Assembly: GCA_023459335.1 (NCBI GenBank)
Contig: JAEWUO010000005.1
Span: 11,168 to 75,167, forward strand
Source: Bacillota bacterium
Lineage (GTDB): Bacteria; Bacillota; Clostridia; Christensenellales; CAG-138
Length of the DNA stretch: 64,000 nucleotides
Reading direction: 5' to 3'
A model generated the notes under the pieces. That model saw only the letters and a program-made list of their open reading frames with translations, ran no database searches and was not told where the DNA came from. Within the stretch, counting starts at the first letter, position 1. Every line of letters starts with the position of its first letter. Below are positions 46,000-64,000 of the stretch, in pieces. The position numbers and the translations under genes are program-made.

Positions 46000-46252
46000 T
46001 TTCTTCCCCCGTCTCACCCGGGCAGCAGAACCCGAAGTAATATAATGCAATTTTATACCATCTCATTCATTATAGCCGCTGTGAAATGCGAGCGCAAGAA
46101 AAGAGTGCGTATGAAAATGAATATGTAACAAAATTTTTTATCAAAGGAAGCGGCGGGCTGTAACGCCGAAGGCAGAAAAGGCGAAACGCGTTTTCTGAGA
46201 ATATCTCCGATGGGAAAATTGTCCTATGATTTGCAGAAATTACTGCGCGGCC

Positions 46253-47170: not shown

Positions 47171-48145
47171 TCAGACGTCTTCGCGCTTGCGCTTCCTGCC
47201 GAAACAGTCGAGCCAGATGATCGCCACGATGACGACACCCTGGCAGACCTGCTGCAGATACGGCGCGATTCCAAGCATATTCATGCAGTTTGCAAGCAGC
47301 TGCAGCACCATCAGCCCTATGAAACTCTGCAGAATGCCGCCGACGCCGCCGGCGAAGCTCGTACCGCCGACCACGACGCCGCAGTTGACCATCAGCGCGG
47401 TGTCGTCGCCATAGATGCTCGAACCGGTGTTCAGTTTGCTGCTCAGCAGCACGCCCGCGACGGCGGCAAGCGCGCCGCTTAAAATGAAGGCGACCCATTT
47501 TGTCGCAAGCACGTTGATGCCTGAATACTTCGCGACGTCGTAGTCTCCGCCGAGCGCATAGAGATTCCGACCGTAGCTCGTATACCGCAGCAGCGCGTAG
47601 ACCAGGAGCCCAATAACGATCATATAGATCGCGAGCGTCGGGATCACGCCGCCGATCTTGCTGTTGGCGATCTTCATAAACGCCGCGTTCGTGCAGGAAA
47701 CCGGGTGCGCGTCCGTCAGTTGCTGGTTTACGCCCTTGATCAGCATGCCCATGCCGAGCGTGATGATGAACGCCTCCGTCCTCTGCTGCACGACGAGAAA
47801 ACCGTTGATGAACCCAACCACCGCGCCGCAGAGAACAGCGATCGCTATCGCGAGCCAGAGGTTCATGCCGCCGTTCATGAGTTTGATGGCAGCAATGCCG
47901 GAGAGGCACATAACCCCGCCGACCGAAAGATCGCACCCGGCCGCGATGACGGTCAGTGTCACGCCGAAGGCGATGATCTCGTTCACCGCCGCGTCCTTCA
48001 GCACGTTAAGCAAATTGTAGCTCGTGTAAAAATTCGTTTTGAAGAAGAGCATGAGGACCAGCATCGCAAGAATCGCGATCACGGCCTTCTGCTTCGTCAG
48101 GGCGCGCATCGTGCGCTTACCGAAATCCGCTATCGATGTTTGCAT
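47171..48145 (-). CDS. Sugar ABC transporter permease (CUT2, RbsC/AraH-like)
   Basis: Polytopic 324-aa protein with a GGGAGGG RBS, in an operon with a CUT2-type ATPase. Confidence 0.88.
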   Translation of the reverse strand: MQTSIADFGKRTMRALTKQKAVIAILAMLVLMLFFKTNFYTSYNLLNVLKDAAVNEIIAFGVTLTVIAAGCDLSVGGVMCLSGIAAIKLMNGGMNLWLAIAIAVLCGAVVGFINGFLVVQQRTEAFIITLGMGMLIKGVNQQLTDAHPVSCTNAAFMKIANSKIGGVIPTLAIYMIVIGLLVYALLRYTSYGRNLYALGGDYDVAKYSGINVLATKWVAFILSGALAAVAGVLLSSKLNTGSSIYGDDTALMVNCGVVVGGTSFAGGVGGILQSFIGLMVLQLLANCMNMLGIAPYLQQVCQGVVIVAIIWLDCFGRKRKREDV

Positions 48146-48157
48146 AACGTTCCCTCC

Positions 48158-49120
48158 CTACAGCTCTTTCCGGTTGTCCAGCCAGATGGCGACAACCAGA
48201 ATCGCTCCCTTGAGCACAACCTGCATGTAGGACGAAACACCGAGCAGGTTCATGCAGTTGGACATCAGCGTGATCAGAAGCACGCCAAGAACGGTTCTGA
48301 GTACGCTGCCCTTGCCGCCTTTGAGCGTCGTGCCGCCGACGACGACGGAAAGGATCGCGTTTGTTTCATAGTTTTTACCGATGATCGGCGCCGCGGTCGT
48401 GATGCGGGAAAACAGCACCACCGCGCCGACGGCGGACATCAGCCCGCAGATCGTGTAGATCAAAATCACGCTTCGCTTGATCGGGATGCCGGAAAGCTCC
48501 GCCGCGACCTTATTGCCGCCCGTGTAGCTGATCGCGCGGCCGCTGTACGTTTTATTGTGAAAAACCCACAGCGCCGCCAGCGAAACGAGAAAGATGATGA
48601 ACGAAACGGACAGGATGCCGACCGTGCCGGAGCCGATCGCCGTGAATATGGTCTGCGGCGTCTGCAGCCAGCTCATGTGCTGCGTAGCGCCGCCCGTATA
48701 GATCAGCGCGACCGCGCTGTAAACCGCGCTCATGCCGTAGGTGATGAACAGCGCCTCGGCCTGCGTCAGGGCGCCCGCGGAAATGAGTACCATGCTGTTG
48801 AGAAAGCCGAGGAACGCGCCGAGCGCAACACCGATGATCAGCGCGTTGAACTGGCCGAGCGGATCGATCAAAGACACCGTGACCACCGCGACAAGCGAGA
48901 TCAGCCCGGCGACCGATAGGTCGATGAATCCGCCGATGATGACAAACGTCATGCCCAGAGATACAAAGCTCAGAGGCCCGAACTGACGCATGATGTTCGT
49001 CAGGTTTTCGCCGGTGAGGAACTTCGGTTCCACGACGACCGTGATGATGACCAGCAGCACAATAGCGACGAGAACCAGGTAGTTCAGCAAAAACTTCTTT
49101 AAATCAAATCGTTTTGTCAT
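48158..49120 (-). CDS. Sugar ABC transporter permease (CUT2, second subunit)
   Basis: Paralogous polytopic protein. Start refined to MTKRFDLKKF with a GGGAGGAG RBS. Confidence 0.88.
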   Translation of the reverse strand: MTKRFDLKKFLLNYLVLVAIVLLVIITVVVEPKFLTGENLTNIMRQFGPLSFVSLGMTFVIIGGFIDLSVAGLISLVAVVTVSLIDPLGQFNALIIGVALGAFLGFLNSMVLISAGALTQAEALFITYGMSAVYSAVALIYTGGATQHMSWLQTPQTIFTAIGSGTVGILSVSFIIFLVSLAALWVFHNKTYSGRAISYTGGNKVAAELSGIPIKRSVILIYTICGLMSAVGAVVLFSRITTAAPIIGKNYETNAILSVVVGGTTLKGGKGSVLRTVLGVLLITLMSNCMNLLGVSSYMQVVLKGAILVVAIWLDNRKEL

Positions 49121-49134
49121 GTTCGCTCCTCCCG

Positions 49135-50616
49135 TCAACCGATCGCGCTGTCCATGATCGTCTGCGCGGACACCTCTTCGGGATTGAATTCCCCGGTGAT
49201 GCGGCCTTCGCAGATGGTCAGAACGCGGTTGCTCATATTCAGCACCTCCGGCAGCTCGGAGGAGATCATGATAATCGATCCGCCGTTTTCCACCACCTGC
49301 TTCATCAGCAGGTAGATTTCGTACTTGGCGCCGACGTCGATGCCGCGCGTCGGTTCGTCCATGATCAGAATCTGCGGGTTGATCTCAAGCCAGCGCCCGA
49401 CCACGCATTTTTGCTGGTTGCCGCCGGACAGGCTCAGTACGGTCGTCTGCGCGGAGGGCGTCTTGATGCCGAGGTTGCTGATCTGCCGTTCCGCGATTTC
49501 CTTTTCACTGGAGGAGTTGACAAAGCCGAACTTCGTCATCTTTTCCAGGCTCGCCATGACGATATTGCTCTGCACGGAGAAACGAAGCACAAGGCCCTGC
49601 AATTTGCGGTCTTCCGGCAGAAGGCCGATGCCGGTTTTCTTAGCGTCCGCCGGTTTTTTTATTTTAACCGGCTTGCCTTCGATCAGCACGCGGTGGCCTT
49701 TCGCCTTGTCCGCGCCGCAGATCGCGCGGGCGATTTCTGTGCGCCCCGCGCCGACCAGGCCGACGAAACCGAGGATTTCTCCCCGTTTCAGTTCAAAGGA
49801 GACGTCGTGCAGCTTATGCGTATTAATCGAACGAACCTCCATCAGCGTCTCTCCTACGCACCTGGGGCGCTCGGGGTATTCGTGTTCGATCGTACGGCCG
49901 ACCATCTTGGTGATCATCTCCGCGCGCGTCAGTTCGCCGACAGGCTTCGTATCGATCGCGTGGCCGTCGCGCATGACGGTGACGATGTCGCACAGCTCGA
50001 AGATTTCATCCAATTTATGGCTGATATAGATGATGGAAACGCCGCGCGCTTTTAAGTCGCTGATGATGGAAAACAGCTGCTTGAGTTCGTCGCTGGTGAG
50101 AGAGCTGCTCGGCTCGTCCATGATGATCAGCTTGCTCTGATAAGACAGCGCTTTCGTGATCTCGACCATCTGCTTTTCCGCGGCGGAGAGGTCGCCCACC
50201 AGTACGCGCGTATCGATGGAACAGCCTATGCTGTCCAGCAGCTTCCTCGCCCGGGCGTGCGTTCCGCGCATGCCATGCATTTCGCTGAATCGCCCGAGGA
50301 AGATGTTCTCGCCGACGCTCATCGTATTCACGAGATTGAATTCCTGATAGATGATGCTTAATCCACGATTGAGCGACTCAATCGGCGTCGTATGTTCAAT
50401 CGTCTCCCCGTCGAAAACGACCGTGCCGGTGTCCTTCGTGTAAACGCCGGACAAAATCTTCATCAGAGTCGATTTCCCCGCGCCGTTTTCTCCTACGATG
50501 CCGTGCACAATGCCCCGCGCGACTTCGATCGAGACATTGTCCAGCGCTTTTACGCCGGGGAACGATTTGCTAACGTTTTTCATGGAAAGGATGATTCCCG
50601 AATCCTTCTTCTCCAC
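49135..50616 (-). CDS. Sugar ABC transporter ATP-binding protein (duplicated NBD, RbsA/MglA-like)
   Basis: Two Walker A motifs (GENGAGKST, GLVGAGRTE) and two signature motifs (LSAAEKQ, LSGGNQQK). GTG start. Confidence 0.92.
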   Translation of the reverse strand: MEKKDSGIILSMKNVSKSFPGVKALDNVSIEVARGIVHGIVGENGAGKSTLMKILSGVYTKDTGTVVFDGETIEHTTPIESLNRGLSIIYQEFNLVNTMSVGENIFLGRFSEMHGMRGTHARARKLLDSIGCSIDTRVLVGDLSAAEKQMVEITKALSYQSKLIIMDEPSSSLTSDELKQLFSIISDLKARGVSIIYISHKLDEIFELCDIVTVMRDGHAIDTKPVGELTRAEMITKMVGRTIEHEYPERPRCVGETLMEVRSINTHKLHDVSFELKRGEILGFVGLVGAGRTEIARAICGADKAKGHRVLIEGKPVKIKKPADAKKTGIGLLPEDRKLQGLVLRFSVQSNIVMASLEKMTKFGFVNSSSEKEIAERQISNLGIKTPSAQTTVLSLSGGNQQKCVVGRWLEINPQILIMDEPTRGIDVGAKYEIYLLMKQVVENGGSIIMISSELPEVLNMSNRVLTICEGRITGEFNPEEVSAQTIMDSAIG

Positions 50617-50769
50617 CCGTCTTTTCCCCTTTCAAGTATTCTCCGCGCAGCGTCCCTGCCTGCATTTTAACATGAACAAACTCCCGCGTCGTCATTTTTT
50701 GCCAGTGTGAAAACCGCCCGGCCCCCGAAGGAGCCGGGCAGCCCAAATTGCGCTAGTTCCGGTTCGAGT

Positions 50770-51786
50770 TTACCATTCCGGATACGGGAGAATGTCCACG
50801 TTATCCTTTGTGACGACGTCGAGCGGGATGAAGTTGACCGCCTCAAACGTGCCGCCTTCCAGCTTCGCCTTTGCGCACTTGAGGCTCTGGATGGCCATGT
50901 TCGTGAAGCTCTGGCCGATACTGACCGCCTGCGTTCCGGCTTTGACCTGGTCGTAACCGGCGCGGCATCCGTCGACCGCAACCAGGTATACGCCCGTCAT
51001 ATTGGCGTTCTTGAGCGCTTCAATCACGCCCGTCGCGCCGTTATCCCAGTGGCAGAAGACACCCTGAATCTGATCGCCGTATTTCACGATGAAGTCTTCC
51101 ATAATGGCCATCGCATCCGCTGTGACCCAGCCGGAGCAGTTCTGGCTGTCCAGAAGGGTGATGTTGGTGCCGTTGATGACCTGACGGAAACCGTCCGCGC
51201 GCTTGATCTGCGCGTCGTGACCAGCCTGGCCGCCGACTTCCACGATGGTTGCGCCGTCCGGGAAATGATCGACAAACGCCTGGCCCGCCGTCTGGCCCGC
51301 CATGGTGTCGTCAACGCCGCAGAAGAAATCACGGTACTGCTGCGATTCCGCCGGGAGGTCCGAAGAGAACATGCCGACGACTACGCCCGCCTCTTTGGCT
51401 TCCATCAGGCTCGGAACGATCGCGTTGATGTCGCTCGGGTTGATGAAGATGACGTCGTAATCCTGCGCGATGCAGGTGCTGACGGCTTTCGCTTCGTTCT
51501 GAACATCGTTTTGTCCTTCAAACACATCCACGGAGAAGCCGTATTCCGGGGCATACTGCTGCAGCTGCTTCCAGGAATAGGCCTGCGACTCGTTGGAGAG
51601 CGCCTGCGTAATGAACGCGGCTTTGTAGGTCGTCGCTTCGGGTTCGGCGGCGGGCGCCTCTGTGGCTTCCGCTGTCGCGGCTTCCGTCGCGGGTTCCGCC
51701 GCGGCGGGTTCGGTGACAGGTTTGCAGGCGAACACGCCCACTACCATCATGAGAGCCAGGAGCAGTACGAGAATCTTTTTGGACAT
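50770..51786 (-). CDS. Sugar ABC transporter substrate-binding lipoprotein (PBP type I)
   Basis: Signal peptide plus lipobox (VGVFAC), an Ala/Glu/Pro/Thr linker, then an RbsB-like fold pattern. AGGAGGAA RBS. Confidence 0.88.
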   Translation of the reverse strand: MSKKILVLLLALMMVVGVFACKPVTEPAAAEPATEAATAEATEAPAAEPEATTYKAAFITQALSNESQAYSWKQLQQYAPEYGFSVDVFEGQNDVQNEAKAVSTCIAQDYDVIFINPSDINAIVPSLMEAKEAGVVVGMFSSDLPAESQQYRDFFCGVDDTMAGQTAGQAFVDHFPDGATIVEVGGQAGHDAQIKRADGFRQVINGTNITLLDSQNCSGWVTADAMAIMEDFIVKYGDQIQGVFCHWDNGATGVIEALKNANMTGVYLVAVDGCRAGYDQVKAGTQAVSIGQSFTNMAIQSLKCAKAKLEGGTFEAVNFIPLDVVTKDNVDILPYPEW

Positions 51787-51898
51787 TCTGTTATTCCTCC
51801 TTTTTATTTAAGCATCCGGCGCGCGTATCGTCGGGCGTTCGCCGTCTGCTTATTCCGTATGCAGTGCGCCTGCCGTTTTGCCCGGCGCTTCGTCCCGA

Positions 51899-52759
51899 TC
51901 AGCTCAGCGCTTCCTGCAGCGCCTTGAGCATGACAGATTTGTCGGGTTTCAAGCCCGTCCACATCTCGATATTGATCGCCGCCTGGTTGATCAGCATGCC
52001 GGTTCCGGTGTTCCATCTTGCGCCGCGCGCCTGCGCCGCGCGCAGAAACGGCGTAACCGCCGGGTTCGGAATCACGTCCTGCACGAACATCGTCGGCAGG
52101 ATCGTATCCGGATCGATATTCGGCATCTCGTCCACGTTGGGATATAACCCGATCGGGGTCGCGTTGACGAGGATATCGGTATCCGCGGGAACCCGGTAGG
52201 TGTGATCCCAGGTCACGAACGCGTTTTGCTTCATGATTTTACCCAGCAGCTCCATCAGGCTCTTTGCCAGCGCCGCGTCTTCGGGACGGTTGACGATGGT
52301 GATGCTGCCGGCGCCCGCGAGCGAGAGTTCCACGCTGACCGCGCGTGCGGCTCCACCCGCGCCGAGGATGACGATCTTCTTGCCCTTCGGGTCTACATGG
52401 TTGTCCTGCAGGGATTCCATGAACCCTTTGCCGTCCGTGTTTTCACCGAACAACCTGCCGTCCGTATTGACGATCGTGTTCACCGCGCCGATGAGCCGCG
52501 CGCTTTCCGAAAGCTCGTCGAGATATCGAATCACGTTGATCTTGTGCGGAATCGTGCAGTTGATGCCGCGCATCTTAAAAGCCTTCAGCCCTTTGATCGC
52601 GTCCTCCAGTTTATCGGGGTCTACGTCGATGGTCAGAAACCGCCAGAGGTTCAGGCCCAGCGCCCGAAAAGCCGCCTCCTGAATGACGACGCCGGGGTTT
52701 TCCGCCGCCGGATGCCCGAACACGCCGACCAGACAATCCAGATAATTCTGCTCTTTCAT
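51899..52759 (-). CDS. AroE-family (shikimate/quinate dehydrogenase-like) oxidoreductase with a non-canonical substrate motif
   Basis: TIPHK, AVNT, NTDG and GAGGAARA motifs are conserved. The N-terminal GxPxxHSxSP motif is replaced by GHPAAENPGV. Confidence 0.8.
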   Translation of the reverse strand: MKEQNYLDCLVGVFGHPAAENPGVVIQEAAFRALGLNLWRFLTIDVDPDKLEDAIKGLKAFKMRGINCTIPHKINVIRYLDELSESARLIGAVNTIVNTDGRLFGENTDGKGFMESLQDNHVDPKGKKIVILGAGGAARAVSVELSLAGAGSITIVNRPEDAALAKSLMELLGKIMKQNAFVTWDHTYRVPADTDILVNATPIGLYPNVDEMPNIDPDTILPTMFVQDVIPNPAVTPFLRAAQARGARWNTGTGMLINQAAINIEMWTGLKPDKSVMLKALQEALS

Positions 52760-52800
52760 CGTTTTACGCCTCCGAATTTCGTCAAATGCGGCCCGGTTCT

Positions 52801-54564
52801 TTACAACTGAGACGCCGCGAAGTACGCCGCGCCGACCGCCTGCCCAAACTGCGCCACCGTATGCGCGGGATCGTTTTTCAGATCCATCATGAGCGGAGTG
52901 AACGCAAAGTTCCCATCCCCCGCGATAAACTCTACGGGGCAGCGCGCGTTTGCGCCCTCCTGCATCAGATCAAAACAGCGTTTATGCTTCACAAACCGGC
53001 CGAAGAGCACACGAGAGCGGCTCTTTGGGGCGAGCATCCACTCGGTCTCCTCAAACGTAACCGCGAGAAACTCGCCGATTTCGCGGAAGATCTCCGCCGC
53101 CGCAGGATCTCCTTCGGAGGCAAGGCGCATCAGATGCTCCAGAAGCGGTTTGCGCATGTCCGAAGGCGACTGGCAGACATACACGCCGCCTTCCCGCCGT
53201 TCCAGAAATCCTTTTTCGAAGAGTTCGGCATACCGCTGCGGGGATTTTTCCTCAAAGATCCGCAGCGCGAGTCGGTAAGCGCCGCTCTGGCTGCAATACT
53301 TCTGCAGCGTCCCAGGCAGGCTGGTGTTGAAGTTATTCACGCTGCGCGCATCCAGTTCGTGATAAGCGCGCGCGGGGCGGTTGCCGAGGTCGATGATGCA
53401 GTTATAGATCTCCAGCGGAATCTGCGGAATTTCGCCCGTTTCGTCGATCCAGCCTGTGCCGAGCTCGGTGCCCAGCGTGTGGGCGAACACGCCGCTGGCG
53501 ACCGAATCCGCTTCGCCGGAGTGGGCCAGTTCCACCGCCGCGGTGTATGCCGCGAGCGATCCGTCGTTCGCCATGTGTACCTTGCCGCCGGCACGGCACT
53601 GCTGAAGAAGAAGCGTGTTCAGCGCGGTGAGCTTTAAAAATTCCGATTCATAATCGCCGGATGCGTTGCGGATGCCGCGCGTTTTATAGGTTTCCCCGCC
53701 AACGATCTTGTCTGCGATCACCACATCCGGAAAGCACACGCCGATGCCGTCGAGAAGCGGCGCTTCGCCGTATACCGCGCGGCAGGTATCCGCCGCGCTT
53801 TGCATCGCCTCGAAGGATACGCCTTTTTTGAGCATCTGTTCCTTCAGCGAGTCCGCTTCCGGCGTATTTGGCAGGGACATCGCCGCGCGCACCACCCGCG
53901 ACATGAGCAGAATCGGTTCGATCACCTGTTCCACTTTCGTCATCTCGGCGGGAAACCAGTCGTATTCCTTGACCGCTGCGATCCGCCCGTTTCGGATACC
54001 GACCACCTTGATGTCGGTGCCTCCGATGTCGATGCCGCAGAGCGTCGCTTCGCGGGATTTCTTCACCGCCGCCCTGCAGGCGGTCACCGCGTCCAGGTGC
54101 GGCCTGACCTGCGTATGTTCCGGCTGCGGAAGCGATTCCGCGATGATAAATGTAAACGGAGCCAGTCCCAGAGCCGCATTGATGCGGTCCGTCACGTTAA
54201 GGCACTTGCCGTAGCCGCGCCGCTCGCGCTTTGGCAGATGTACCTGGAATACGCGTTCCAGCGTTTCGCAGAGGTTTCGCGCGAACGTGTCGCCGGGTGT
54301 GATAACGAGCGTCATGCCTGCGCCGCCGTACGCGGAGATAAAGTTGTAAAGGCTGGCGTAAAAATACTCCCTGACAAAAGACTGTTCCGCTTCGTCCGCC
54401 GTCTCGGGGAGGCGGATTTCCCAGCGTCTGCTTGTGCCGGCGGCGAGCGTAAGATCGCACTCGATCCGGCAGAGCGCGCCGCGAAACGCCTTTCGAATAT
54501 CGGTGATATAGACGTTTTCGCCCCGTTCGGCCTTGGTCAGAAACTCCTGCACCATCGCGTTCAT
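52801..54564 (-). CDS. Atypical ROK/ASKHA-type sugar-kinase-like protein with an extra ~170-aa N-terminal domain
   Basis: GIDIGGTDIKV (phosphate-1), NDGSLAAYTAA and TLGTELGTG motifs. It lacks the ROK CxCGxxGC zinc motif. 587 aa. Confidence 0.7.
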   Translation of the reverse strand: MNAMVQEFLTKAERGENVYITDIRKAFRGALCRIECDLTLAAGTSRRWEIRLPETADEAEQSFVREYFYASLYNFISAYGGAGMTLVITPGDTFARNLCETLERVFQVHLPKRERRGYGKCLNVTDRINAALGLAPFTFIIAESLPQPEHTQVRPHLDAVTACRAAVKKSREATLCGIDIGGTDIKVVGIRNGRIAAVKEYDWFPAEMTKVEQVIEPILLMSRVVRAAMSLPNTPEADSLKEQMLKKGVSFEAMQSAADTCRAVYGEAPLLDGIGVCFPDVVIADKIVGGETYKTRGIRNASGDYESEFLKLTALNTLLLQQCRAGGKVHMANDGSLAAYTAAVELAHSGEADSVASGVFAHTLGTELGTGWIDETGEIPQIPLEIYNCIIDLGNRPARAYHELDARSVNNFNTSLPGTLQKYCSQSGAYRLALRIFEEKSPQRYAELFEKGFLERREGGVYVCQSPSDMRKPLLEHLMRLASEGDPAAAEIFREIGEFLAVTFEETEWMLAPKSRSRVLFGRFVKHKRCFDLMQEGANARCPVEFIAGDGNFAFTPLMMDLKNDPAHTVAQFGQAVGAAYFAASQL

Positions 54565-54573
54565 CCATCCATC

Positions 54574-57821: not shown

Positions 57822-57972
57822 GTTAGGTTGTTTCCTCGGTGTTTGTTACGAACGTAAGTGAATCGAATGTGAATAGAATTAATCTGCTTGTTTCTATAAA
57901 AATGCTATCATAAAAAAAACGGCTGTGAAACCGTTTTGCGTGTTTAAAAGGTGTATTATCGTGAACCATATT

Positions 57973-58773
57973 TTAATTGGATGCTTCTTTGTTCCGGTAT
58001 TCCCGCGTGGACATACCCGTATACGCGCGAAACGCACGGTAAAAAAACTTTGTGGAATGGTAACCCGTCTGATAAGCGATCTCCTCGGTGTTCATGCTCG
58101 ACGCGGCGAGCATGGTCTTCGCGGTCTCCATGCGAAGGGAGTTCAGGCATTCCATCAGGGAAACGCCGGTTTTCCGTTTAAACGCGCGGCTGAGATAGGA
58201 TTTGCTGACGTAGACCATGTCCGCAAGCTGCTGCACGCTGATGCCCTCGGTCAGGTGGTCCTGCATATAGAGGATTACACGGCTGACCATGTCGCTCTCC
58301 GTCTGCTTTTCGTAATAATGCTTTCCGATGAGGATGGCGATGCATTTCGCATAATGGTCAATCAGCGCCTTGCAGGGTTTCTTGCTCTTGTATTCCGCAT
58401 GCAGATTCTCCATCAGCCACTTGAAATGCGCGTCCTTGTCCTGTATGCGGATGATATCGCCCAGCTCCAGCCCGGGGATATCCACCCAGAGGCAGATGAT
58501 CTCCTGATGATGGTCGTATTGCAGGCTCTCGGTGTGCGGCTTTCCTTTGGGGTATACGATCATATCGTAAAACGAAGCCTGAACGCTCGTTTCCCCCGCG
58601 ATAACGCGCGCGTTTCCATAGAGGAAGTAGATCAGCTCGATGCAGTCGTGCGTATGTTCCTTAAAGTTCCAGATATTGCTGCGCTCATCGAAACGCTCGC
58701 AAAAGAGCACGGGCGTTTCCGACCGGTCCACCGCCGCGCAGAACTCTTCGTAACCGTTGGCAAAGAAGTCCAA
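57973..58773 (-). CDS. AraC-family transcriptional regulator (cupin sensor plus HTH)
   Basis: The C-terminal double HTH (ISVQQLADMVYVSKSYLSRAFKRKTG...EIAYQTGYHSTKFFYRAFRAYTG) is the AraC signature. TTG start with an AAGGAG RBS. Confidence 0.9.
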   Translation of the reverse strand: MDFFANGYEEFCAAVDRSETPVLFCERFDERSNIWNFKEHTHDCIELIYFLYGNARVIAGETSVQASFYDMIVYPKGKPHTESLQYDHHQEIICLWVDIPGLELGDIIRIQDKDAHFKWLMENLHAEYKSKKPCKALIDHYAKCIAILIGKHYYEKQTESDMVSRVILYMQDHLTEGISVQQLADMVYVSKSYLSRAFKRKTGVSLMECLNSLRMETAKTMLAASSMNTEEIAYQTGYHSTKFFYRAFRAYTGMSTREYRNKEASN

Positions 58774-58807
58774 TCCGCTCGCTCCTTTTTATTCGCGTCC
58801 CCTTCTC

Positions 58808-59551
58808 TCAGGTGAGGATGATCTGCACCCCGCTGCTCTCGAGCGCGGCGCGGCTGCTGTCCGGTAACGCGTTCGTGATCACATGCGTCACCCTGCTTGT
58901 CGGCATAAGCTGCACCACGCCGCGCCGGTTAAACTTGGAATCGTCCGTGAGGATGATGCGCTTTTCCGCGCGCGCCGCCATGGCTCGGACGGCTTCCGCG
59001 CGCAGCATGTCTACGTTGGAAAAGCCCTGAACCGGGTCGTATCCGTCGGTGCCGATGAAGAATTTATCGACGAAGAACTCCTCGGCGCACTTGCCCACGA
59101 GCGGCCCGCTCATCACCTGCGCGTCGGGGTCGTACGCCCCGCCGAGCAGCACTACGCGGGCGCCCGGGATGGCGCGCACATATCCCGCGATAAACGCGGA
59201 GTTGGTGATGATGGTCACGTCCCGCTTTTTACGGACAAGCTCCTCCGCGAGCATCGCGCAGGTGGAGCCGGACTCGATCATGACCGCTTCCCCGCTCTGC
59301 ACCATGTCCGCCGCGCGGCGGGCGATGCGCCGCTTGACCTCGTAATCGAACGTCATGCGGTAACCGACGTCGTTTGGAGAAACGCGCATGGCGTAGCCGT
59401 GCTGCCGGTGCAGCAGCCCTTTGTTTTCCAGAACGGCGAGGTCTTTTCTCACCGTAACGGCCGAAACGGAGAGCCGGGACGCGAGGTCGTTGACATCCAG
59501 CGTTTCCTCGCGGTTGAGCATGTCCAGTATGGTAAGGCAGCGTTGATTCAT
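58808..59551 (-). CDS. DeoR-family transcriptional regulator
   Basis: HTH (LDVNDLASRLSVSAVTVRKDLAVLENKGLL) plus a DeoR C-terminal sugar-phosphate sensor domain. Start refined to the ATG with a GGGAG RBS; the tracked ORF starts 9 codons earlier. Confidence 0.88.
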   Translation of the reverse strand: MNQRCLTILDMLNREETLDVNDLASRLSVSAVTVRKDLAVLENKGLLHRQHGYAMRVSPNDVGYRMTFDYEVKRRIARRAADMVQSGEAVMIESGSTCAMLAEELVRKKRDVTIITNSAFIAGYVRAIPGARVVLLGGAYDPDAQVMSGPLVGKCAEEFFVDKFFIGTDGYDPVQGFSNVDMLRAEAVRAMAARAEKRIILTDDSKFNRRGVVQLMPTSRVTHVITNALPDSSRAALESSGVQIILT

Positions 59552-59689
59552 ATCCGTACTCCCGTAGTTCAATTTCATATCATAGTTATAGACCGATCAT
59601 TCGAAACCGGATTGCCACCCTATTATAACAGTCCGGATCATATTTTTCCAGCGGACGCGAAAGCCGGCGGACGCATATAATATCTGCCC

Positions 59690-59773
59690 CCGTTCTGGCA
59701 ACGATATCATCCTTCCTTGTTTTTTAACAACGAATTCACAGCGCCTGTTCCGTTCTGGCGATGATATCGTCCT
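59690..59773. repeat. 24-nt direct repeat (21/24 identical): the GRE2 3' coding end and a copy 60 nt downstream of it
   Basis: CCGTTCTGGCGATGATATCGTCCT (59750-59773, inside GRE2) versus CCGTTCTGGCAACGATATCATCCT (59690-59713, intergenic). Confidence 0.75.
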
Positions 59774-62171
59774 GCGTTTGGCGCGAAAGAACGTTGAAAA
59801 ACGCCGAATATCCCGCCACGCGCACGATCAGATCCCTGTGGTTTTCCGGATGGGCCTGCGCGTCGAGCAGCGTTTCTCTGGAAACCACGTTGTACTGCAC
59901 ATGGAATCCTTTCAGCACGTTGAAAAACGTTCGTAACAGCATCATCAGCTTCTGTCTGTCGCGCGGGTTTTCCAGCATGCTCGGCGCAACCTTCTGATTC
60001 AGCAGCACGCCGCCGGTGATCTTGTCCGTCGGGAGCTTGCTGACGCTCTTGAACACGCTGGTCGGGCCGTTGACGTCCGCCGCGTGCGCAGGCGAGCAGC
60101 CCTCGGCGAGCGGGTCTCCCCTGTGCCGCCCGTCGGGCGTCGCGCAGGTACCCGCGCCCTGCGGCACGTTGGCGGAGATCGAGCTGGTGCCCGCGTAGTA
60201 ACGTCCGCCGATGGGGCCGCGTCCGTAGCGGGTGTTTTTATACTTCTTGAGCTCGTCGATGTAGCTGTCGTAGCCCTGAACGACGAGGTTGTCCACATAA
60301 TCGTCGTCGTTGCCGTATTTTGGCGCGGCGAGCAGGAGCGTGCGGATCTCCTCCCCGCGTTCGCCCGAAAAGTCGGTCAGGAGCGCATTCCAGAGTTCCT
60401 CGCGCGTAACGCTCTTGTCTTCGTAGACGGTCTTTTTGATCGCGGCCAGCGAGTCGCCGAGGTTCGCGATGCCAACCTGCAGATCGCTGATGAAGTCGTA
60501 AACCGCGCCGCCTTCCTTGAGATGCTTGCCGCGGGCGATGCAGTCCTCCGTCAGCGCCGAGCAGAGAATGTCCGGCACTTCCTGCTCCAGCACGAGGTCC
60601 GCACTGGAGTCGAGGATGACCGCCTGACGGCAGAATTCGCGCACGAACACGTCCCAGGCGCGCATCACGTCGTCGAACGACCGCATATCGAGAAAATGCC
60701 CGCATCCCTCGTACACGCGTTTCCCGCTGTCGATATCCACGCCGTCGTTGAGTGCGATCATCAGCGTTTTCGGAAAATTCAGGAAGCTCATACCCGTGCA
60801 GCGGTATCCCCACTTGCCGGGGACGGCGACTTCCACGCAGCCGATGGCGCTGTAGTTATACGCATCCTCTTTTTTTACCCCGATATCGAGGAAGGAAGGA
60901 ATGATGATCTCGTCGCTGTTGAAGGCCGGCATGCCGAACCCGCAGCGGATCACCTGAATGCACTCCCGCATAAAATGCTCGCTGAGGCCTTTGTGGTAGC
61001 GGACCGTGAGGTTCGGCTGCGGCAGATGGCAGCGCGCGACCGTGCGCAGGATCATATAGCTTAGTTCGTTCACCGCGTCGCGGCCGTCCGCGGTCTGTCC
61101 GCCGACGGTGACGTTCTGATACAGCGGGCTGCCGGCCGAGAATCGCGTGTGCGACCAGCTGCGGATTTTATTGACCGTAAACGTGCGGAGCCAGAGGTTT
61201 TCGAGCAGTTCGCAGGCCCGCTCCTCGCTCATGCCCTCTTTGCGGCTCTTCCCATAATACGGAAACACATACTGATCCAGGCGCCCGTAGGAGAGCGAAT
61301 GGCCGTTGCTTTCAATCTGGAGGATCACGTGCAGGAGCCAGACGCTCTGCAGCGCCTCATGGAATGTCTCCGCAGGCTGCATCGGCACTTTTTTCAGGAT
61401 GCGGGCCAGTTCGAGCAGTTCCCGCGCGCGTTCCGGCGCGGACGACATCGCCTGCTCCTCCGCCAGCGCGGCATACCGCAGGGCAAACGTCTCCACCGCG
61501 TCCATCACAATCAGGATCGCGCGGTAAAAATAGCTCTTTTTCAAGTCGTCGAATCGGGTCAGGTCGAGGCCGTTCTGCTGCTCCAGTACGCGCAAGCGGT
61601 AGCTGTTGAGCCCTTCGCGCAGCACGCGTCCGTAATCGACGGCGATGTGCGCGTCTCCGGAGGTGATGTTTCCCTCGGTCTTGATGATGCCGAGGTCGTA
61701 AAAGAGCCGCGCACGTTCCGGAAACGCCGCATAGCCCTTGTCCTGCAGGGTGCGGCCTTTCCAATACGGATAGATCCCACGCAGCGCCTGCTTGTTTTCT
61801 TCCGTGATGGTGAAGCGGTCTCCGTCGCGTTTGTCGAACGCGTCCAGCTCGCCGATCACCCAGTCCATCGCGTATTCGGGAAAGATCGGCGCACTGCGGT
61901 CGCTCGACGCCTGGTTTCCGGCGAGCAGCGCATCCGGGTCGATATAGATGCTCATATGCCGCAGCACATTGTCCAGCATATACGCGCGGCGCAGCACCAC
62001 CTGATCCTGCTCGTGCGCACGGTAACTTTGGGTGGTGAGCAAGGCGCGCTCCACATCCACCGTCGGCTGCGTATCCAGCAGGCGCGCGCGAATACGTGCG
62101 GTGCGCTCATTCAGCGGGCCGAAGTATTCTTTGGGATTGCCATATTCTTTTTCGTTTTGCAACGCTTCCAT
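59736..62171 (-). CDS. Glycyl radical enzyme 2 (PFL2/eliminase class, YbiW-like)
   Basis: Gly-radical loop RVAGYSAFF (Gly at 59811-59813). Cys loop GCVEV (Cys at 60837-60839). Start refined to MEALQNEKE (GGGGAG RBS), with alternative ATGs at 62180 and 62195. Confidence 0.92.
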   Translation of the reverse strand: MEALQNEKEYGNPKEYFGPLNERTARIRARLLDTQPTVDVERALLTTQSYRAHEQDQVVLRRAYMLDNVLRHMSIYIDPDALLAGNQASSDRSAPIFPEYAMDWVIGELDAFDKRDGDRFTITEENKQALRGIYPYWKGRTLQDKGYAAFPERARLFYDLGIIKTEGNITSGDAHIAVDYGRVLREGLNSYRLRVLEQQNGLDLTRFDDLKKSYFYRAILIVMDAVETFALRYAALAEEQAMSSAPERARELLELARILKKVPMQPAETFHEALQSVWLLHVILQIESNGHSLSYGRLDQYVFPYYGKSRKEGMSEERACELLENLWLRTFTVNKIRSWSHTRFSAGSPLYQNVTVGGQTADGRDAVNELSYMILRTVARCHLPQPNLTVRYHKGLSEHFMRECIQVIRCGFGMPAFNSDEIIIPSFLDIGVKKEDAYNYSAIGCVEVAVPGKWGYRCTGMSFLNFPKTLMIALNDGVDIDSGKRVYEGCGHFLDMRSFDDVMRAWDVFVREFCRQAVILDSSADLVLEQEVPDILCSALTEDCIARGKHLKEGGAVYDFISDLQVGIANLGDSLAAIKKTVYEDKSVTREELWNALLTDFSGERGEEIRTLLLAAPKYGNDDDYVDNLVVQGYDSYIDELKKYKNTRYGRGPIGGRYYAGTSSISANVPQGAGTCATPDGRHRGDPLAEGCSPAHAADVNGPTSVFKSVSKLPTDKITGGVLLNQKVAPSMLENPRDRQKLMMLLRTFFNVLKGFHVQYNVVSRETLLDAQAHPENHRDLIVRVAGYSAFFNVLSRQTQDDIIARTEQAL

Positions 62172-62176
62172 TTTTC

Positions 62177-63118
62177 TCATTCTCCCCGGACACATTCCGC
62201 CGCCCCGATGAGGCCGATGTCCCCTCCGAGCTCCGCCAGGCGAAACTCGACCGGCAGCGGAATGTGGTTATACTTGTCGAACTCCGCTTTCACGCGGTCG
62301 AACAATGCGTCCCCGAAATTGGTGAGCCCGCCGCCGAAGACAAAGCGGTTGATGTTAAGCATCTGGTAGATGTTGAACGCGCATACGGCAAGATAATGCG
62401 CGGTGGTTTCGATCACTTCGAGCGCGAGCGGGTCTCCCTTGCGGTATGCATCCAGCACGTGTTCCCCGTCCGCCGTCTCCGGCGTGAGGATCGTGTTGGC
62501 GCAGTAGGTCATCTGCCCGCGCACACGCGCACTGATGCTGCGCCCTGAAGCGTAGCTCATGAAGCATCCGCGGTTCTCACAGCCGCACAGAAGCCCCTCG
62601 TCCGGCGTTGCCAGCATATGCCCGCACTCGCCGGCCCAGCCGTAGCTGCCGCGAAAAAGCCTGCCGTCGATGATGATGCCGCTGCCGAGGCCCGTTCCCG
62701 CCGTGATATACACAAGGTGCCGGACGCCTCTGCCCGCGCCGTGCCGGTATTCGGCGAGCGCCGCGGCGTTGCTGTCGTTATCCAGTACGACGCGTGTTTT
62801 CAGCCGTTTTTCCAGATAGTCCCGCATCGGAAACTGTTTGATCCCCGGCATGGCGGATGTCATGAGCACGACCCCGTCGTCAAAGAGGATGAACGAGGGC
62901 ATGCAGATGCCGATTCCGTCGAGATCCTTATCTTTCATGCCGTTGCGATCCAGCATCGCGCGAACCTGTTCCGCGATCGTATCGGAAAACGACTCCCCGG
63001 TTGCGCAGACGTCCGTCGCGTGCTGCGCGCGGTCCACGCGCTCTCCCGCCGGGTTATAGAGTCCGTAGGCGACCTTTGTGCCGCCGGCGTCGATTCCGAT
63101 CACGTATCCGTCCGTCAT
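62177..63118 (-). CDS. ROK-family sugar kinase
   Basis: GIDAGGTKVAY phosphate-1 motif and the canonical ROK zinc motif GHM...CGCENRGCF. Start refined to MTDGYVIG. Confidence 0.9.
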   Translation of the reverse strand: MTDGYVIGIDAGGTKVAYGLYNPAGERVDRAQHATDVCATGESFSDTIAEQVRAMLDRNGMKDKDLDGIGICMPSFILFDDGVVLMTSAMPGIKQFPMRDYLEKRLKTRVVLDNDSNAAALAEYRHGAGRGVRHLVYITAGTGLGSGIIIDGRLFRGSYGWAGECGHMLATPDEGLLCGCENRGCFMSYASGRSISARVRGQMTYCANTILTPETADGEHVLDAYRKGDPLALEVIETTAHYLAVCAFNIYQMLNINRFVFGGGLTNFGDALFDRVKAEFDKYNHIPLPVEFRLAELGGDIGLIGAAECVRGE

Positions 63119-63171
63119 ACCGTCCTGATTCCTCTCTGAACATACCAATTTCGAGTATTTGAAACAAATTC

Positions 63172-63222
63172 AGTATATTTCGGTAAAACTGCATTGTCAA
63201 GGAATTATGTTACTATTATAAT
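63172..63222. promoter_or_regulatory. Back-to-back divergent promoters with overlapping -35 boxes
   Basis: Plus strand reads TTGTCA (63194-63199)-N17-TATAAT (63217-63222). Minus strand reads TTGACA (63195-63200)-N17-TATACT (63172-63177). Confidence 0.6.
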
Positions 63223-63330
63223 AATATTACTTTCATATGTAAGTTTCGTGATCGGATTGCAAACCCGCCGCCGTTGCGCTATGATGAATGCGCACGCTTT
63301 AACGAGCATGCAAGGAGGTAACTACCCGTT

Positions 63331-64000
63331 ATGAAACGTTCCGAAATCAACCGCGCGATCCGTCGTATGGAGGCGTTCGCACAAAAACACGGCTTTCCGC
63401 TGCCGCCGTTCTGCGGCTGGACGCCGGAGGAGTGGCAGGCAAAAAACCGCGAATACGACGAAATCCGGGACAATATGCTCGGCTGGGATGTGACCGATTA
63501 CGGCGCGGGCGATTTTTCCAGGATGGGCTTTTCTTTGATCACCATCCGGAACGGTAACTTCGCCAAGCGGGAAACCTATCCGAAGCCGTATGCCGAGAAG
63601 CTGTTGTATATCGAAGAGGGACAGTATTCGCCGATGCATTTTCATTGGAGCAAGATGGAGGACATCATCAACCGCGGCGGCGGAACCGTGCTCATCAAGG
63701 TCTACAACGCCGCGGCGGACGAAAGTCTCGCTTCCACCGATGTTACCCTGCATTGCGACGGCCGGTCGTTTGCCGTGCCCGCGGGCACGCAAATCCGCCT
63801 CGCGCCAGGTGAAAGCATCTCGATTCAGCCATACTTGTATCACGACTTCAACGTCGAGGCCGGTTCCGGCCCCGTGCTGCTCGGCGAAGTGAGCATGTGC
63901 AACGACGACGTGCACGACAACCGCTTCCTCGAACCGCTCGGACGTTTCTCCACCAATGAGGAGGACGAACCCGCATACCGGCTGCTCTGCAACGAATATC
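63331..64000 (+). CDS. D-lyxose/D-mannose ketol-isomerase (cupin), truncated by the window end
   Basis: Not in the ORF track because it has no stop in the window. Hand translation gives MKRSEINRAIRRMEAFAQKHGFPLPPF...YAEKLLYIEEGQYSPMHFHWSKMEDIINRGGG...GESISIQPYLYHDF...GEVSMCNDDVHDNRFLEP...LLCNEY, matching the YdaE/D-lyxose isomerase family. AAGGAGG RBS. Confidence 0.88.
   Translation, partial: MKRSEINRAIRRMEAFAQKHGFPLPPFCGWTPEEWQAKNREYDEIRDNMLGWDVTDYGAGDFSRMGFSLITIRNGNFAKRETYPKPYAEKLLYIEEGQYSPMHFHWSKMEDIINRGGGTVLIKVYNAAADESLASTDVTLHCDGRSFAVPAGTQIRLAPGESISIQPYLYHDFNVEAGSGPVLLGEVSMCNDDVHDNRFLEPLGRFSTNEEDEPAYRLLCNEY

Follow-up and report, generated by a model that had tools for sequence, protein, structure and literature searches.

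A gut/digester Clostridia bacterium was found to carry both a YbiW-type and a PflD-type glycyl radical enzyme (GRE) in a single locus of the 64,000-nucleotide stretch of DNA analysed here (the window). We consider it reasonably probable that this locus is a non-PTS, ABC-plus-kinase version of the radical "anhydroglycolysis" known from E. coli (Ma et al. 2024, JACS; summaries in PMC13450708 and PMC12441222), possibly with entry from 1,5-anhydrofructose. In E. coli, the oxygen-sensitive enzymes YbiW and PflD, whose ring-opening role was recognised only recently, work by a C-x-E mechanism and cleave 1,5-anhydroglucitol-6-phosphate (AG6P) and 1,5-anhydromannitol-6-phosphate (AM6P) to 1-deoxyfructose-6-phosphate, a product that aldolases go on to split (2026 review, PMC13450708), and the substrates are taken up by PTS (PMC12441222). 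Both points had been named in an earlier, sequence-only reading of this DNA. The assignment of the two enzymes as anhydrohexitol-6-phosphate C-O lyases is stated in the review, and the coupling to PTS and Fsa agrees with the reported uptake and with the E. coli loci (ybiV-ybiW-ybiY/fsaA and gldA-fsaB-ptsA/frwCB-pflD-pflC-frwD/yijO), which carry frw PTS genes, fsaA/fsaB and gldA.

Organisation and distribution of the locus

All genes named in the sequence-only reading were recovered from open reading frames, Pfam and NCBIfam at about the same coordinates, with small corrections of start codons. The "contiguous minus-strand array" described there holds as far as the strand is concerned (genes below are on the minus strand unless stated). 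However, intergenic gaps and promoter- and terminator-like sites suggest that it is probably made up of three or four transcription units, namely ROK-GRE2, DeoR-AraC and GRE1-activase-p587-AroE(-ABC), rather than one operon. The start of the ROK kinase gene was moved from TTG 63148 to 63118, and the resulting 313-aa product is already on record. For GRE2, a start at 62180 is likelier than one at 62195; the ATGA at this position overlaps the ROK stop and provides translational coupling of the two genes. GRE1 and the activase gene overlap by 4 bp, and p587 follows after 9 bp.

The DeoR-family regulator (58808–59578; HTH_DeoR and DeoRC) is, judged by its sequence, of the sugar-phosphate-sensing type. 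Its position is conserved in related loci, and public gene calls begin 9 codons later, giving 247 aa (L001). The AraC-family gene (57973–58773; HTH_18 and HTH_AraC) lies upstream of GRE1 and was found in 47 of 80 related loci. Its product is 31% identical to YijO, in the HTH region only, and by position it is the analogue of E. coli YijO beside pflDC.

The D-lyxose/D-mannose isomerase gene is divergently transcribed, as had been proposed (63331–64000, plus strand; PF07385, 328 bits over the full profile). This cupin protein starts at ATG 63331 behind a GGAGG ribosome-binding site, and 223 of its 228 residues lie inside the window, the end of which cuts the gene. The divergent promoter region (63172–63285) contains sigma-70-like sites with 11/12 matches on each strand, these being consensus matches only. 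In an identical metagenome contig (L004), the genes that come after it encode a HAD phosphatase of the Cof type and a lactonase-like protein (PF10282), and the isomerase is syntenic in 17 related loci.

Comparison of the 80 related loci showed that the contiguous order GRE1>activase>p587 is present in 52 of the 61 that were informative, and that this cassette occurs in at least five named lineage groups (Christensenellaceae, Oscillospiraceae, Spirochaetes, Chloroflexi and Planctomycetes). The full 12-gene order is found in about 25 species-level genomes, and in distant phyla the core is accompanied by AroE-like, ABC and AraC genes in rearranged orders. Complete genomes with the locus include OY762962.1 and OW818651.1. 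CUT2 ABC genes are present in 50/80 loci, PTS components (EIIC gene) in 0/80 and an Fsa-type aldolase in 1/80. In Chloroflexi, a GFO/IDH/MocA oxidoreductase takes the AroE-like position behind p587; in one such locus (L082) the next genes encode a HAD phosphatase and a TAL_FSA aldolase, a connection between the cassette and the downstream reaction already known. Dak1/Dak2 genes were seen in one locus (L054) and GMC oxidoreductases in Chloroflexi loci. Within the window itself, tblastn detected neither an Fsa/TAL aldolase nor a PTS EIIC, in agreement with the earlier reading, and a gldA-type gene is also missing from the window.

The two glycyl radical enzymes

GRE2 (59736–62195 as open reading frame, likely 59736–62180; PFL-like and Gly_radical domains) carries GCVE at residue 452 and RVAGY at residue 792 in the numbering of the 819-aa open reading frame, and GRE1 (55467–57821) carries them at 424 and 756. 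Both motifs had been reported for the two enzymes and could be located, and the YbiW blocks in GRE2 and PflD blocks in GRE1 listed in that reading are visible in HMMER alignments. Among solved structures, the best relatives of GRE2 are 6xs4 (920 bits) and YbiW (8id7, 898 bits), with the next family at 605. GRE2 is 53.3% identical to E. coli YbiW, forms a clade with it at a bootstrap of 100/100 and keeps 95 of 359 YbiW-specific positions, R453, K550 and R650 among them. The proposed resemblance to YbiW is therefore well founded; on sequence grounds GRE2 is clearly a YbiW orthologue and is predicted to act as a 1,5-anhydroglucitol-6-phosphate C-O lyase (ring-opening isomerase).

The proposed resemblance of GRE1 to PflD is supported, with caveats. 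PflD is its best solved match (8yjo, 655 bits; 8id0, 627) and a GRE1+PflD split has a bootstrap of 89/100, but the lead over glycerol dehydratase (608 bits; propanediol dehydratase, 585) is marginal and GRE1 falls below the NCBIfam PflD equivalog PRK09983 (756 bits against a cut-off of 1109). Identity is 43% to PflD and 41% to glycerol dehydratase. Unlike E. coli PflD itself, GRE1 belongs to a separate, long-branched sister clade that is not nested within PflD. It has 28 of 139 PflD-specific positions and 7 of 119 positions specific to glycerol and propanediol dehydratases. The PflD-specific residues include Q149, D151, Q154, A264, S265, G325, T618, H622 and an extra G645, where the glycerol/diol dehydratases have Y157, Y159, V162, G280, H281, Y339, P641 and N645. 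Three PflD-specific basic residues are changed (K152 to H, R427 to N, R516 to H), as are neighbouring ones (T324I, Y326F, T327N, L431W), and the residues replacing the three basic ones, together with several in the pocket region, are invariant in the GRE1 clade. These replacements suggest that the substrate of GRE1 could differ from that of PflD. GRE1 is predicted to be a C-O lyase of 1,5-anhydromannitol-6-phosphate or a closely related sugar phosphate.

Activase, kinases, reductase and importer

The activase (54574–55470) scored above the cut-off of TIGR02494 (304 bits) and contains Radical_SAM and Fer4 domains, with CX3CX2C at residue 29 and a ferredoxin-like insert. Since it is the sole activase in the window, it presumably acts on both GREs. 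A flavodoxin-like/2x[4Fe-4S] fusion (46253–46993; Flavodoxin_5 and Fer4) is encoded directly downstream of the array, with synteny at 52–63% identity in Christensenellaceae-type loci only. It may supply electrons to the activase, and its membership of the system is uncertain.

The ROK kinase (62177–63118; PF00480, 207 bits) has ExGH at residue 164 and a visible zinc-type motif CGCENRGC. Direct sequence relatives are ROK glucokinases and N-acetylmannosamine kinases (3vgk, 2qm1, 2yhw), the best solved ones being the ROK glucokinases 3vgk (160 bits) and 2qm1 (152 bits); the score against TIGR00744 (214 bits) does not reach the cut-off of 260. From these relationships it is a candidate 1,5-anhydroglucitol (gluco-configured) 6-kinase.

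The 587-aa protein p587 (52801–54564) had been described as ROK-like, which is borne out by motifs and fold but not by profiles, as it has zero Pfam and zero NCBIfam matches. In an AF2 model (pLDDT 86.9), its C-terminal ~410 residues adopt a ROK/ASKHA sugar-kinase fold. Foldseek ranks ROK gluco- and ManNAc kinases at the top (probability 1.0), the same 3vgk, 2qm1 and 2yhw being the closest folds, with DxGGT, NDG and GTG conserved. The P-loop-like DIGGT (residue 179), the NDG with the catalytic Asp (333) and GTG (369) are invariant. In contrast to the ROK kinases, to which it is 12–17% identical in structural alignments, p587 does not have the CxCGxxGCxE zinc motif and has an extra N-terminal domain of ~170 residues; this domain alone (pLDDT 89) gave no PDB match, the best Foldseek E being 0.036. 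The family is small: out of 1.84 billion, no more than 298 cluster representatives reach E<=0.001. Homologues adjoin phosphomannose isomerase (L042) and lyxose/mannose isomerase (L065) genes, there without any GRE, which suggests manno-configured substrates. p587 is a candidate manno-configured (1,5-anhydromannitol) 6-kinase. As other homologues adjoin YbiW-like GREs (L086, L049), the gluco/manno split between ROK and p587 is not firm.

The shikimate-dehydrogenase (SDH)-family protein (51899–52759), called AroE-like in the sequence-only reading, is closest among solved structures to 5-ketofructose reductase (7cok, 237 bits versus 194 for true SDH). It shares with 7cok/7col the replacement of the carboxylate-binding HSxSP serines by (A)(D/E)NP, here AENPG, and keeps the catalytic Lys and Asp in the PHK and NTDG motifs. 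Because of this closeness and the loss of the shikimate carboxylate-binding serines, it is probably a keto-sugar reductase, with pyranoid keto-sugars as candidate substrates. Reduction of 1,5-anhydrofructose to anhydromannitol or anhydroglucitol is a candidate reaction, proposed by analogy only. Unlike 7cok/7col, the protein sits in the GRE locus of an anaerobe. An SDH homologue of Clostridium pasteurianum is inactive on 5-ketofructose (PMC7954740). The gene is present in 44/80 related loci at 66–94% identity.

The importer comprises a CUT2-family, ribose-binding-protein-like lipoprotein (50770–51786; Peripla_BP_4, 153 bits; lipobox-like VFAC), which matches its best solved relatives at 83 bits only and has no close characterised relative; an ATPase with two fused nucleotide-binding domains (49135–50616; ABC_tran in two stretches); and two permeases (48158–49138, with a likely ATG at 49120, and 47171–48145; BPD_transp_2, 105 and 121 bits).

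Proposed pathway and alternatives

As in E. coli, both GRE types occur, GCVE loop and RVAGY included; an activase is dedicated to them, the PflD-type gene has a regulator of the AraC type as its neighbour (yijO in E. coli), and a Cof-type HAD phosphatase lies nearby (ybiV beside ybiW). Unlike in E. coli, a CUT2 ABC importer and two soluble kinases are present instead of PTS, both GREs share one locus and a single activase, Fsa aldolase and GldA are missing from the locus, and an SDH-family reductase and the divergent lyxose isomerase/HAD/lactonase unit are added. In the scheme that we propose, gene content, homology, clades, motif conservation and cross-phylum synteny are observed and every substrate and reaction is predicted. 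The CUT2 transporter would take up free 1,5-anhydro-hexitols and/or 1,5-anhydro-D-fructose. The SDH-family enzyme would act most likely upstream, reducing 1,5-anhydrofructose to anhydromannitol or anhydroglucitol. Two ATP-dependent kinases would stand in for PTS phosphorylation: the glucokinase-like ROK, coupled to GRE2, would form 1,5-anhydroglucitol-6-phosphate, and p587, with its set place after GRE1 and the activase, would form 1,5-anhydromannitol-6-phosphate. After installation of the glycyl radical on both GREs by the single radical-SAM activase, these would act as YbiW and PflD do: the cysteine of GCVE would abstract H from C2, the loop glutamate would deprotonate the C2-OH and cleavage of C1-O5 would open the ring to give 1-deoxyfructose-6-phosphate. 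DeoR and AraC would control the units. The scheme requires that another part of the genome encode an aldolase that splits this product; with no aldolase or gldA in the window and the single Fsa-type gene among the 80 loci, this carbon-yielding step is unaccounted for. A first step from anhydrofructose to anhydromannitol may be shared with the aerobic pathway of Sinorhizobium morelense, in which an anhydrofructose reductase yields anhydromannitol that is then hydroxylated to mannose (PMC12441222), and a mannose-related isomerase lies near here. However, the S. morelense reductase is of the GFO/IDH/MocA rather than the SDH family, and its later steps are oxygen-dependent, where phosphorylation and radical ring opening would operate here.

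The sequence-only reading had left a choice between an ABC-plus-kinase variant and a different substrate pair. This either/or fits all of the findings, the former being favoured for GRE2 and the latter possible for GRE1. We give a minor, though real, probability to the GRE1 module performing the same chemistry on another pyranoid anhydro-, deoxy- or keto-sugar (e.g. another epimer of anhydrohexitol, a product derived from 5-ketofructose or anhydrofructose, or a sugar that receives its phosphate elsewhere), with GRE2 and ROK alone handling anhydroglucitol. The sister position of the GRE1 clade, the clade-invariant swaps at K152, R427, R516 and in the pocket region, the score under the equivalog cut-off, the reductase nearest to 5-ketofructose reductase and genes without an E. 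coli role (lyxose isomerase, HAD, lactonase, Dak1/Dak2, GMC oxidoreductases) all point this way. Against it, the PflD-specific residues of GRE1 lie at positions homologous to the substrate pocket of glycerol dehydratase, p587 beside phosphomannose or mannose isomerase fits a manno-configured hexose such as anhydromannitol, the aldolase behind the cassette in L082 is of the Fsa type, and the paired YbiW orthologue mirrors the AG/AM pair. It is very improbable that GRE1 is instead a B12-independent 1,2-eliminase of the glycerol/diol-dehydratase type, with a small or unphosphorylated polyol as substrate, and that the sugar genes are unrelated. Glycerol (1r8w) and propanediol (5i2a) dehydratases do share with both GREs the PFL2/GD subfamily (TIGR01774), the Cys-x-Glu loop, GCVE in GRE1, and about 40% identity, and they score nearly as well as PflD. 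But they form a separate clade (100/100), only the seven specific positions noted above are found in GRE1, and in the pocket GRE1 and PflD alike have Ser for H281 and Gly for Y339. Their signatures NYYYNGVGH, ESNGHS, Y339 and YPSSINV contrast with the PflD-like NQTD..QGH, ESNASS, G and YTVSAHVP of GRE1. No diol-utilisation genes (microcompartment, aldehyde dehydrogenase, 1,3-propanediol dehydrogenase) surround GRE1, and the synteny with kinase and sugar ABC genes is conserved across phyla.

p587 could instead use ATP to assist the GRE system and not phosphorylate a substrate, for instance by helping to install or repair the radical, to deliver electrons or to regulate the system; this would explain its rigid position right behind the activase, an order invariant across phyla with the 9-bp spacing. 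The N-terminal domain without structural match and faint BcrAD_BadFG (PF01869) matches in a few family members also fit. We nevertheless find this improbable: each of its best matches by structure is a sugar kinase or ROK protein and none is an HgdC/BcrAD activator, the catalytic Asp and phosphate-binding motifs are invariant, no Fe-S cysteine motif is obvious, GRE-free homologues sit by phosphomannose or lyxose isomerase, and the GRE1 branch would otherwise have no phosphorylating step. Hardly any weight is given to a chance neighbourhood of independent sugar operons without a common pathway. The several transcription units have their own promoter-like sites, and synteny of the lyxose isomerase/HAD/lactonase unit and of the flavodoxin gene is confined to Christensenellaceae-type genomes, but the 12-gene order recurs across species and the core reappears, rearranged, in distant phyla. 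If the anhydroglycolysis reading is true, a new glycolysis-like route would extend to many non-PTS anaerobes.

Organisation and conservation of the locus

The locus occupies positions 47171-64000, and every gene that the sequence-only reading had listed on its minus strand (47.2-64.0 kb) was recovered from open reading frames and from Pfam and NCBIfam searches. These genes encode two CUT2-type permeases, a double-NBD ABC ATPase and a Peripla_BP_4 binding protein (50770-51786) whose characterised relatives are distant (at most 83 bits), then a shikimate-dehydrogenase (SDH)-family protein of 286 aa (AroE-like, 51899-52759), a 587-aa protein called p587 here (52801-54564), a glycyl-radical activase (54574-55470), the 784-aa glycyl radical enzyme GRE1 (55467-57821), an AraC and a DeoR regulator, a second glycyl radical enzyme, GRE2, and a ROK kinase. 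Two starts were corrected: the ROK product (313 aa on the public record) is encoded at 62177-63118, and the likeliest start of GRE2 (59736-62180) is the ATG at 62180, which overlaps the ROK stop codon TGA in an ATGA, both genes being on the minus strand. A D-lyxose isomerase gene on the plus strand (PF07385, 328 bits) starts at 63331 and runs past the window end, and consensus matches indicate a strong divergent promoter pair at 63172-63285. Gene spacing together with consensus promoter and terminator matches suggests that ROK-GRE2, DeoR-AraC and GRE1-activase-p587-AroE(-ABC) form separate units. The GC content of the window is about 58%, and the search for RNA families as a riboswitch lead gave no Rfam match in it. 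Sequence of an identical metagenome contig (L004), which reaches about 3.3 kb beyond 64000, places a Cof-type HAD phosphatase and then a PF10282 lactonase-like gene downstream of the isomerase.

Alignment of p587 homologues yielded 80 related genome loci, onto which the window proteins were mapped by tblastn. About 25 MAGs of the Christensenellaceae type, the group to which the window evidently belongs, keep the whole gene order with 72-95% identity; it consists of the divergent isomerase followed by ROK, GRE2, DeoR, AraC, GRE1, activase, p587, AroE-like and ABC genes. Among the 61 loci with enough upstream DNA, 52 have GRE1, activase and p587 side by side in this order. They include loci of Oscillospiraceae, Spirochaetes, Chloroflexi and Planctomycetes, in which identity falls to 42-46% for p587 and is still 58-66% for GRE1. 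The usual companions of this cassette, in varying arrangement, are CUT2 ABC genes (50 loci), AraC (47) and the AroE-like gene (44). Apart from a few other genomes, only those of the Christensenellaceae type carry the ROK-GRE2 module. In five loci of distant lineages (L055, L057, L073, L078 and L083) the AroE-like reductase and the ABC ATPase are 66-74% identical to those of the window, and GRE1 (about 60%), the activase (43-51%) and p587 (42-46%) are less conserved. This higher identity suggests that the reductase and transport module may be under stronger constraint or may have been separately transferred horizontally.

Immediately 3' of the ABC permeases lies a gene for a flavodoxin-like protein fused to 2x[4Fe-4S] (46253-46993, minus strand). 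It is syntenic only in Christensenellaceae-type genomes, at 52-63% identity, and its product could be a reductant for the glycyl-radical activase. An ORF of 229 aa (45361-46050, minus strand) gave no Pfam match; in 19 of the related loci a homologue of about 217 aa occupies the equivalent place, roughly 8 kb downstream from p587. The flank also carries genes for a GGDEF diguanylate cyclase (41794-42927) and an HD-GYP-type HD_5 protein (43741-45063), the latter syntenic in related genomes at 72-82% identity, which probably represent unrelated c-di-GMP signalling.

The two glycyl radical enzymes

In E. coli, 1,5-anhydroglucitol-6-P (AG6P) is cleaved by YbiW and 1,5-anhydromannitol-6-P (AM6P) by PflD, both yielding 1-deoxyfructose-6-P through a mechanism which relies on a CxE Cys loop providing a thiyl Cys and a general-base Glu, and aldolases afterwards produce glyceraldehyde-3-P and hydroxyacetone (2026 review, PMC13450708). 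This agrees with the assignment of the two enzymes as C-O lyases that the sequence-only reading had given, and the PTS uptake it named is likewise the documented entry route (PMC12441222).

GRE2 consists of a PFL-like barrel (PF02901, 672 bits) and a C-terminal glycyl radical domain (PF01228, 112 bits), with the reported GCVE and RVAGY motifs at residues 452 and 792. Among solved structures it scores 920 bits to 6xs4 and 898 to YbiW (8id7), the next family following at 605. Its proposed resemblance to YbiW is borne out, with 53.3% identity to the E. coli protein, a common cluster in 100 of 100 neighbour-joining (NJ) bootstraps and 95 of 359 YbiW-specific positions kept, among them the basic residues R453, K550 and R650. 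GRE2 was treated as a YbiW orthologue and is a predicted YbiW-type AG6P C-O lyase. Against both GREs of the window, scores of about 455-555 bits were also reached by two further solved enzymes, 8id1 ('formate C-acetyltransferase') and 9rco ('glycyl radical protein'), which could serve as comparators.

GRE1 has the same domains (PF02901, 698 bits; PF01228, 98 bits), and GCVE (residue 424) and RVAGY (756) are present as had been noted. Its scores of 655 and 627 bits to PflD, 608 to glycerol dehydratase (GD) and 585 to propanediol dehydratase (PD), and its identities of 43% to PflD versus 41% to GD, do not by themselves assign it; the tree and signature positions separate PflD from GD. An NJ tree built from 86 GREs places the GRE1 clade, represented by 52 sequences from the related loci, as sister to E. 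coli PflD and 8id0 and not inside PflD; 89 of 100 bootstraps recover the split of GRE1 with PflD, and GD and PD form a clade of their own in 100 of 100. Positions were counted as PflD-specific where both PflDs share a residue that GD, PD and YbiW lack; of these 139, 28 are kept in the GRE1 clade and 7 in the GRE2 clade, which served as control. GRE1 also retains PflD residues at positions homologous with the GD pocket, namely Q149/D151/Q154 (GD Y157/Y159/V162), A264/S265 (GD G280/H281), G325 (GD Y339) and T618/H622 (GD P641/N645), together with a one-residue insertion. The tree, the PflD-specific positions and these pocket-homologous residues favour GRE1 as a PflD-type enzyme. The suggested resemblance to PflD thus holds at the level of grouping and signatures but not of orthology, since GRE1 falls under the cut-off of the PflD equivalog PRK09983 of NCBIfam (756 versus 1109 bits) and forms a sister clade.

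The locus differs from its E. coli counterpart in layout. The gene orders in the MG1655 records are gldA-fsaB-ptsA / frwCB-pflD-pflC-frwD / yijO and ybiV-ybiW-ybiY / fsaA; uptake and phosphorylation by a PTS, together with an Fsa-type aldolase and a GldA-type reductase beside the GRE genes, are found there, whereas the window locus carries an ABC system and kinases and has no such aldolase beside its GRE genes. A tblastn search found no FrwC-like EIIC gene in the window, and none in the 80 related loci. The reported absence of an Fsa aldolase was confirmed by tblastn over the 64 kb with FsaA and FsaB, which match among the related loci only in L082, the one locus of 80 with a TAL_FSA gene.

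Two other loci carry additional GREs near p587. The second GRE of L069 (7082-11180) is a tree outlier with 31% tblastn identity to GRE1; encoded with it are a separate activase, a DUF1349 protein and a HAD protein resembling YbiV. In L049 (3194-8317) the genes after p587 encode a YbiW-like GRE that branches deeply and shares 39% identity with GRE2, an activase and a polysaccharide deacetylase. The spirochaete symbiont of Olavius algarvensis (L054, 4615-6312) has Dak1/Dak2 dihydroxyacetone-kinase subunits directly upstream of GRE1, which may reflect a different handling of the C3 product.

Candidates for two kinases and a keto-sugar reductase

Neither Pfam nor NCBIfam has a model that matches p587. 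More than 1000 homologues were obtained in 90% clusters, and among the best 120 listed every source name shown is 'hypothetical protein'; an exhaustive phmmer search found just 298 relatives among 1.84 billion cluster representatives and no bridge to ROK. By these searches p587 is a small, sequence-isolated family. Foldseek matched its AlphaFold model (pLDDT 86.9) to ROK glucokinases and N-acetylmannosamine kinases at a probability of 1.0, with target-normalised TM-scores of 0.6-0.7 and 12-17% identity. The family shows no variation at DIGGT179, N333-D334 (at the position of the ROK catalytic Asp) or GTG369. The label 'ROK-like' is therefore apt for the ASKHA/ROK kinase fold, the catalytic Asp and the phosphate-binding loops, but neither the ROK profile (PF00480) nor the zinc motif CxCGxxGCxE is found in the sequence. 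The N-terminal domain (residues ~1-170; 54055-54564, minus strand) is confidently predicted (pLDDT 89) and carries an invariant RxGYGKxxNVxxRxN motif, and in a Foldseek search even its best PDB match fell short of significance (E 0.036).

The simplest reading is that p587 would act as a sugar 6-kinase. Two homologues stand beside YbiW-like GREs (L086 and L049), and others, in loci without a GRE, adjoin phosphomannose isomerase (L042) or a lyxose/mannose isomerase and a HAD protein (L065). These isomerase contexts point to manno-configured substrates; 1,5-anhydromannitol (AM) is 1-deoxymannopyranose. For the 313-aa ROK protein the nearest solved relatives are bona fide glucokinases (160 and 152 bits). 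Since 1,5-anhydroglucitol (AG) is 1-deoxyglucose, this likeness would fit its phosphorylation by the ROK kinase.

The AroE-like protein clears TIGR00507 (227.6 bits, cut-off 200.2), which bears out that label at the level of the profile. In AroE the shikimate carboxylate is bound by a Ser-x-Ser (HSxSP) motif; in our alignments this site, HSFSP in the true SDH 1nvt, is AENPG in the AroE-like protein and ADNPT in 5-ketofructose reductase. The PHK and NTDG catalytic motifs are retained. A carboxylated cyclitol (quinate or shikimate) as the substrate of the AroE-like/GRE1 module was rejected, the carboxylate-binding motif being missing. Among solved structures 5-ketofructose reductase scores highest (237 bits; a true SDH reaches 194), and keto-sugar reductases of the SDH family are on record (PMC7954740). 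From both we infer a candidate pyranoid keto-sugar reductase, for which 1,5-anhydrofructose (AF) would be the obvious candidate substrate.

In Chloroflexi, a GFO/IDH/MocA oxidoreductase gene follows p587 at the position of the AroE-like gene of Firmicutes. The analogy is one of position alone, since its product has no specific similarity to characterised enzymes (best 64 bits). In L082 a HAD phosphatase and the TAL_FSA aldolase come after this gene, and two GMC oxidoreductases are encoded upstream of the Chloroflexi cassette; the stretches concerned are 13029-14484 of L082 and 1457-4634 and 11581-12987 of L058. This context hints at oxidation and reduction, perhaps C2 epimerisation, of anhydro-sugars ahead of phosphorylation.

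A possible PTS-independent route and its alternatives

Homology, clade membership and synteny are demonstrated for the locus, which probably represents a variant of a known, very recent pathway rather than a new kind of system. Radical 'anhydroglycolysis' was reportedly first described in 2024, in PTS-bearing Enterobacteria. In the scheme that we propose, free anhydro-sugars would be imported by the ABC system, anhydrofructose would optionally be reduced, and O6 would be phosphorylated by the ROK kinase (gluco) or by p587 (manno). GRE2 and GRE1 would then open the ring at C1-O5 by radical chemistry to give 1-deoxyfructose-6-P, and an enzyme encoded elsewhere would carry out the aldol cleavage. 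All substrates in this scheme are ones that we infer, and its main gaps are the aldolase, which is not in the 64-kb window, the altered basic residues of GRE1, and the lyxose isomerase/HAD/lactonase unit, which has no place in it. Tentatively, and short of an even chance, we suggest that the GRE1-activase-p587 cassette, the SDH-family reductase and the CUT2 importer form a previously undescribed, PTS-independent anaerobic route for free 1,5-anhydro-D-fructose/1,5-anhydromannitol, comprising uptake, NAD(P)H-dependent reduction of AF by the 5-ketofructose-reductase-like enzyme, 6-phosphorylation by p587 and radical ring opening; p587 would found a new sugar-kinase family, with a ~170-aa N-terminal domain without known fold relative, and the route would occur in at least five named anaerobe lineage groups.

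The altered residues bear on what GRE1 cleaves. Its clade invariantly replaces K152, R427 and R516 of PflD with H, N and H, and T324, Y326, T327 and L431 are also changed; these changes may speak against an identity of function with PflD, and the clade offers a test case for pocket changes that retune GRE isomerase specificity. Action of the GRE1 module on a different sugar phosphate is a possibility to be taken seriously, if an unlikely one; the PflD-like residues at pocket-homologous positions and the manno-type neighbours of p587 speak against it. A diol dehydratase function of GRE1, to which its nearly equal score against GD could point, is very improbable: with clade membership and the GD pocket residues H164, H281/S282, Y339 and the Y640 context as yardstick, it was rejected as a B12-independent glycerol/diol dehydratase on H281->S, Y339->G, NYYYN -> NQTDH, the separate clade and the GD+PD-specific positions, of which it has only 7 of 119. 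That p587 is an accessory ATPase and not a kinase we regard as improbable; its fixed place behind the activase and its unmatched N-terminal domain might speak for it, the kinase fold with invariant catalytic Asp against it. Chance adjacency of the genes, for which the several units with promoter-like sites might speak, is hardly to be expected given the contiguous cassette across phyla.

A literature search, with the 2024 primary paper outside its scope, found no report of the ABC/kinase variant, of an anhydro-sugar kinase or of the GRE1 clade. The value of the locus lies in the cross-phylum GRE1-activase-p587 cassette, the unannotated kinase family with its domain of unknown fold and a plausible link to AF, a product of glycogen/starch lyase. 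Candidate enzymes for which we found no earlier description are an anhydroglucitol kinase, an anhydromannitol kinase from the unannotated family, and a keto-sugar reductase of the SDH family, through which AF could enter the pathway. AG is used as a marker in the clinic, and in the neutropenia of GSD-Ib and of G6PC3 deficiency the toxic metabolite arises from it, which gives AG-consuming gut anaerobes and their genes practical interest. Our analysis suggests that in Christensenellaceae, Oscillospiraceae, Spirochaetes, Chloroflexi and Planctomycetes of guts and digesters this radical chemistry is wired otherwise, through ABC uptake and soluble kinases.
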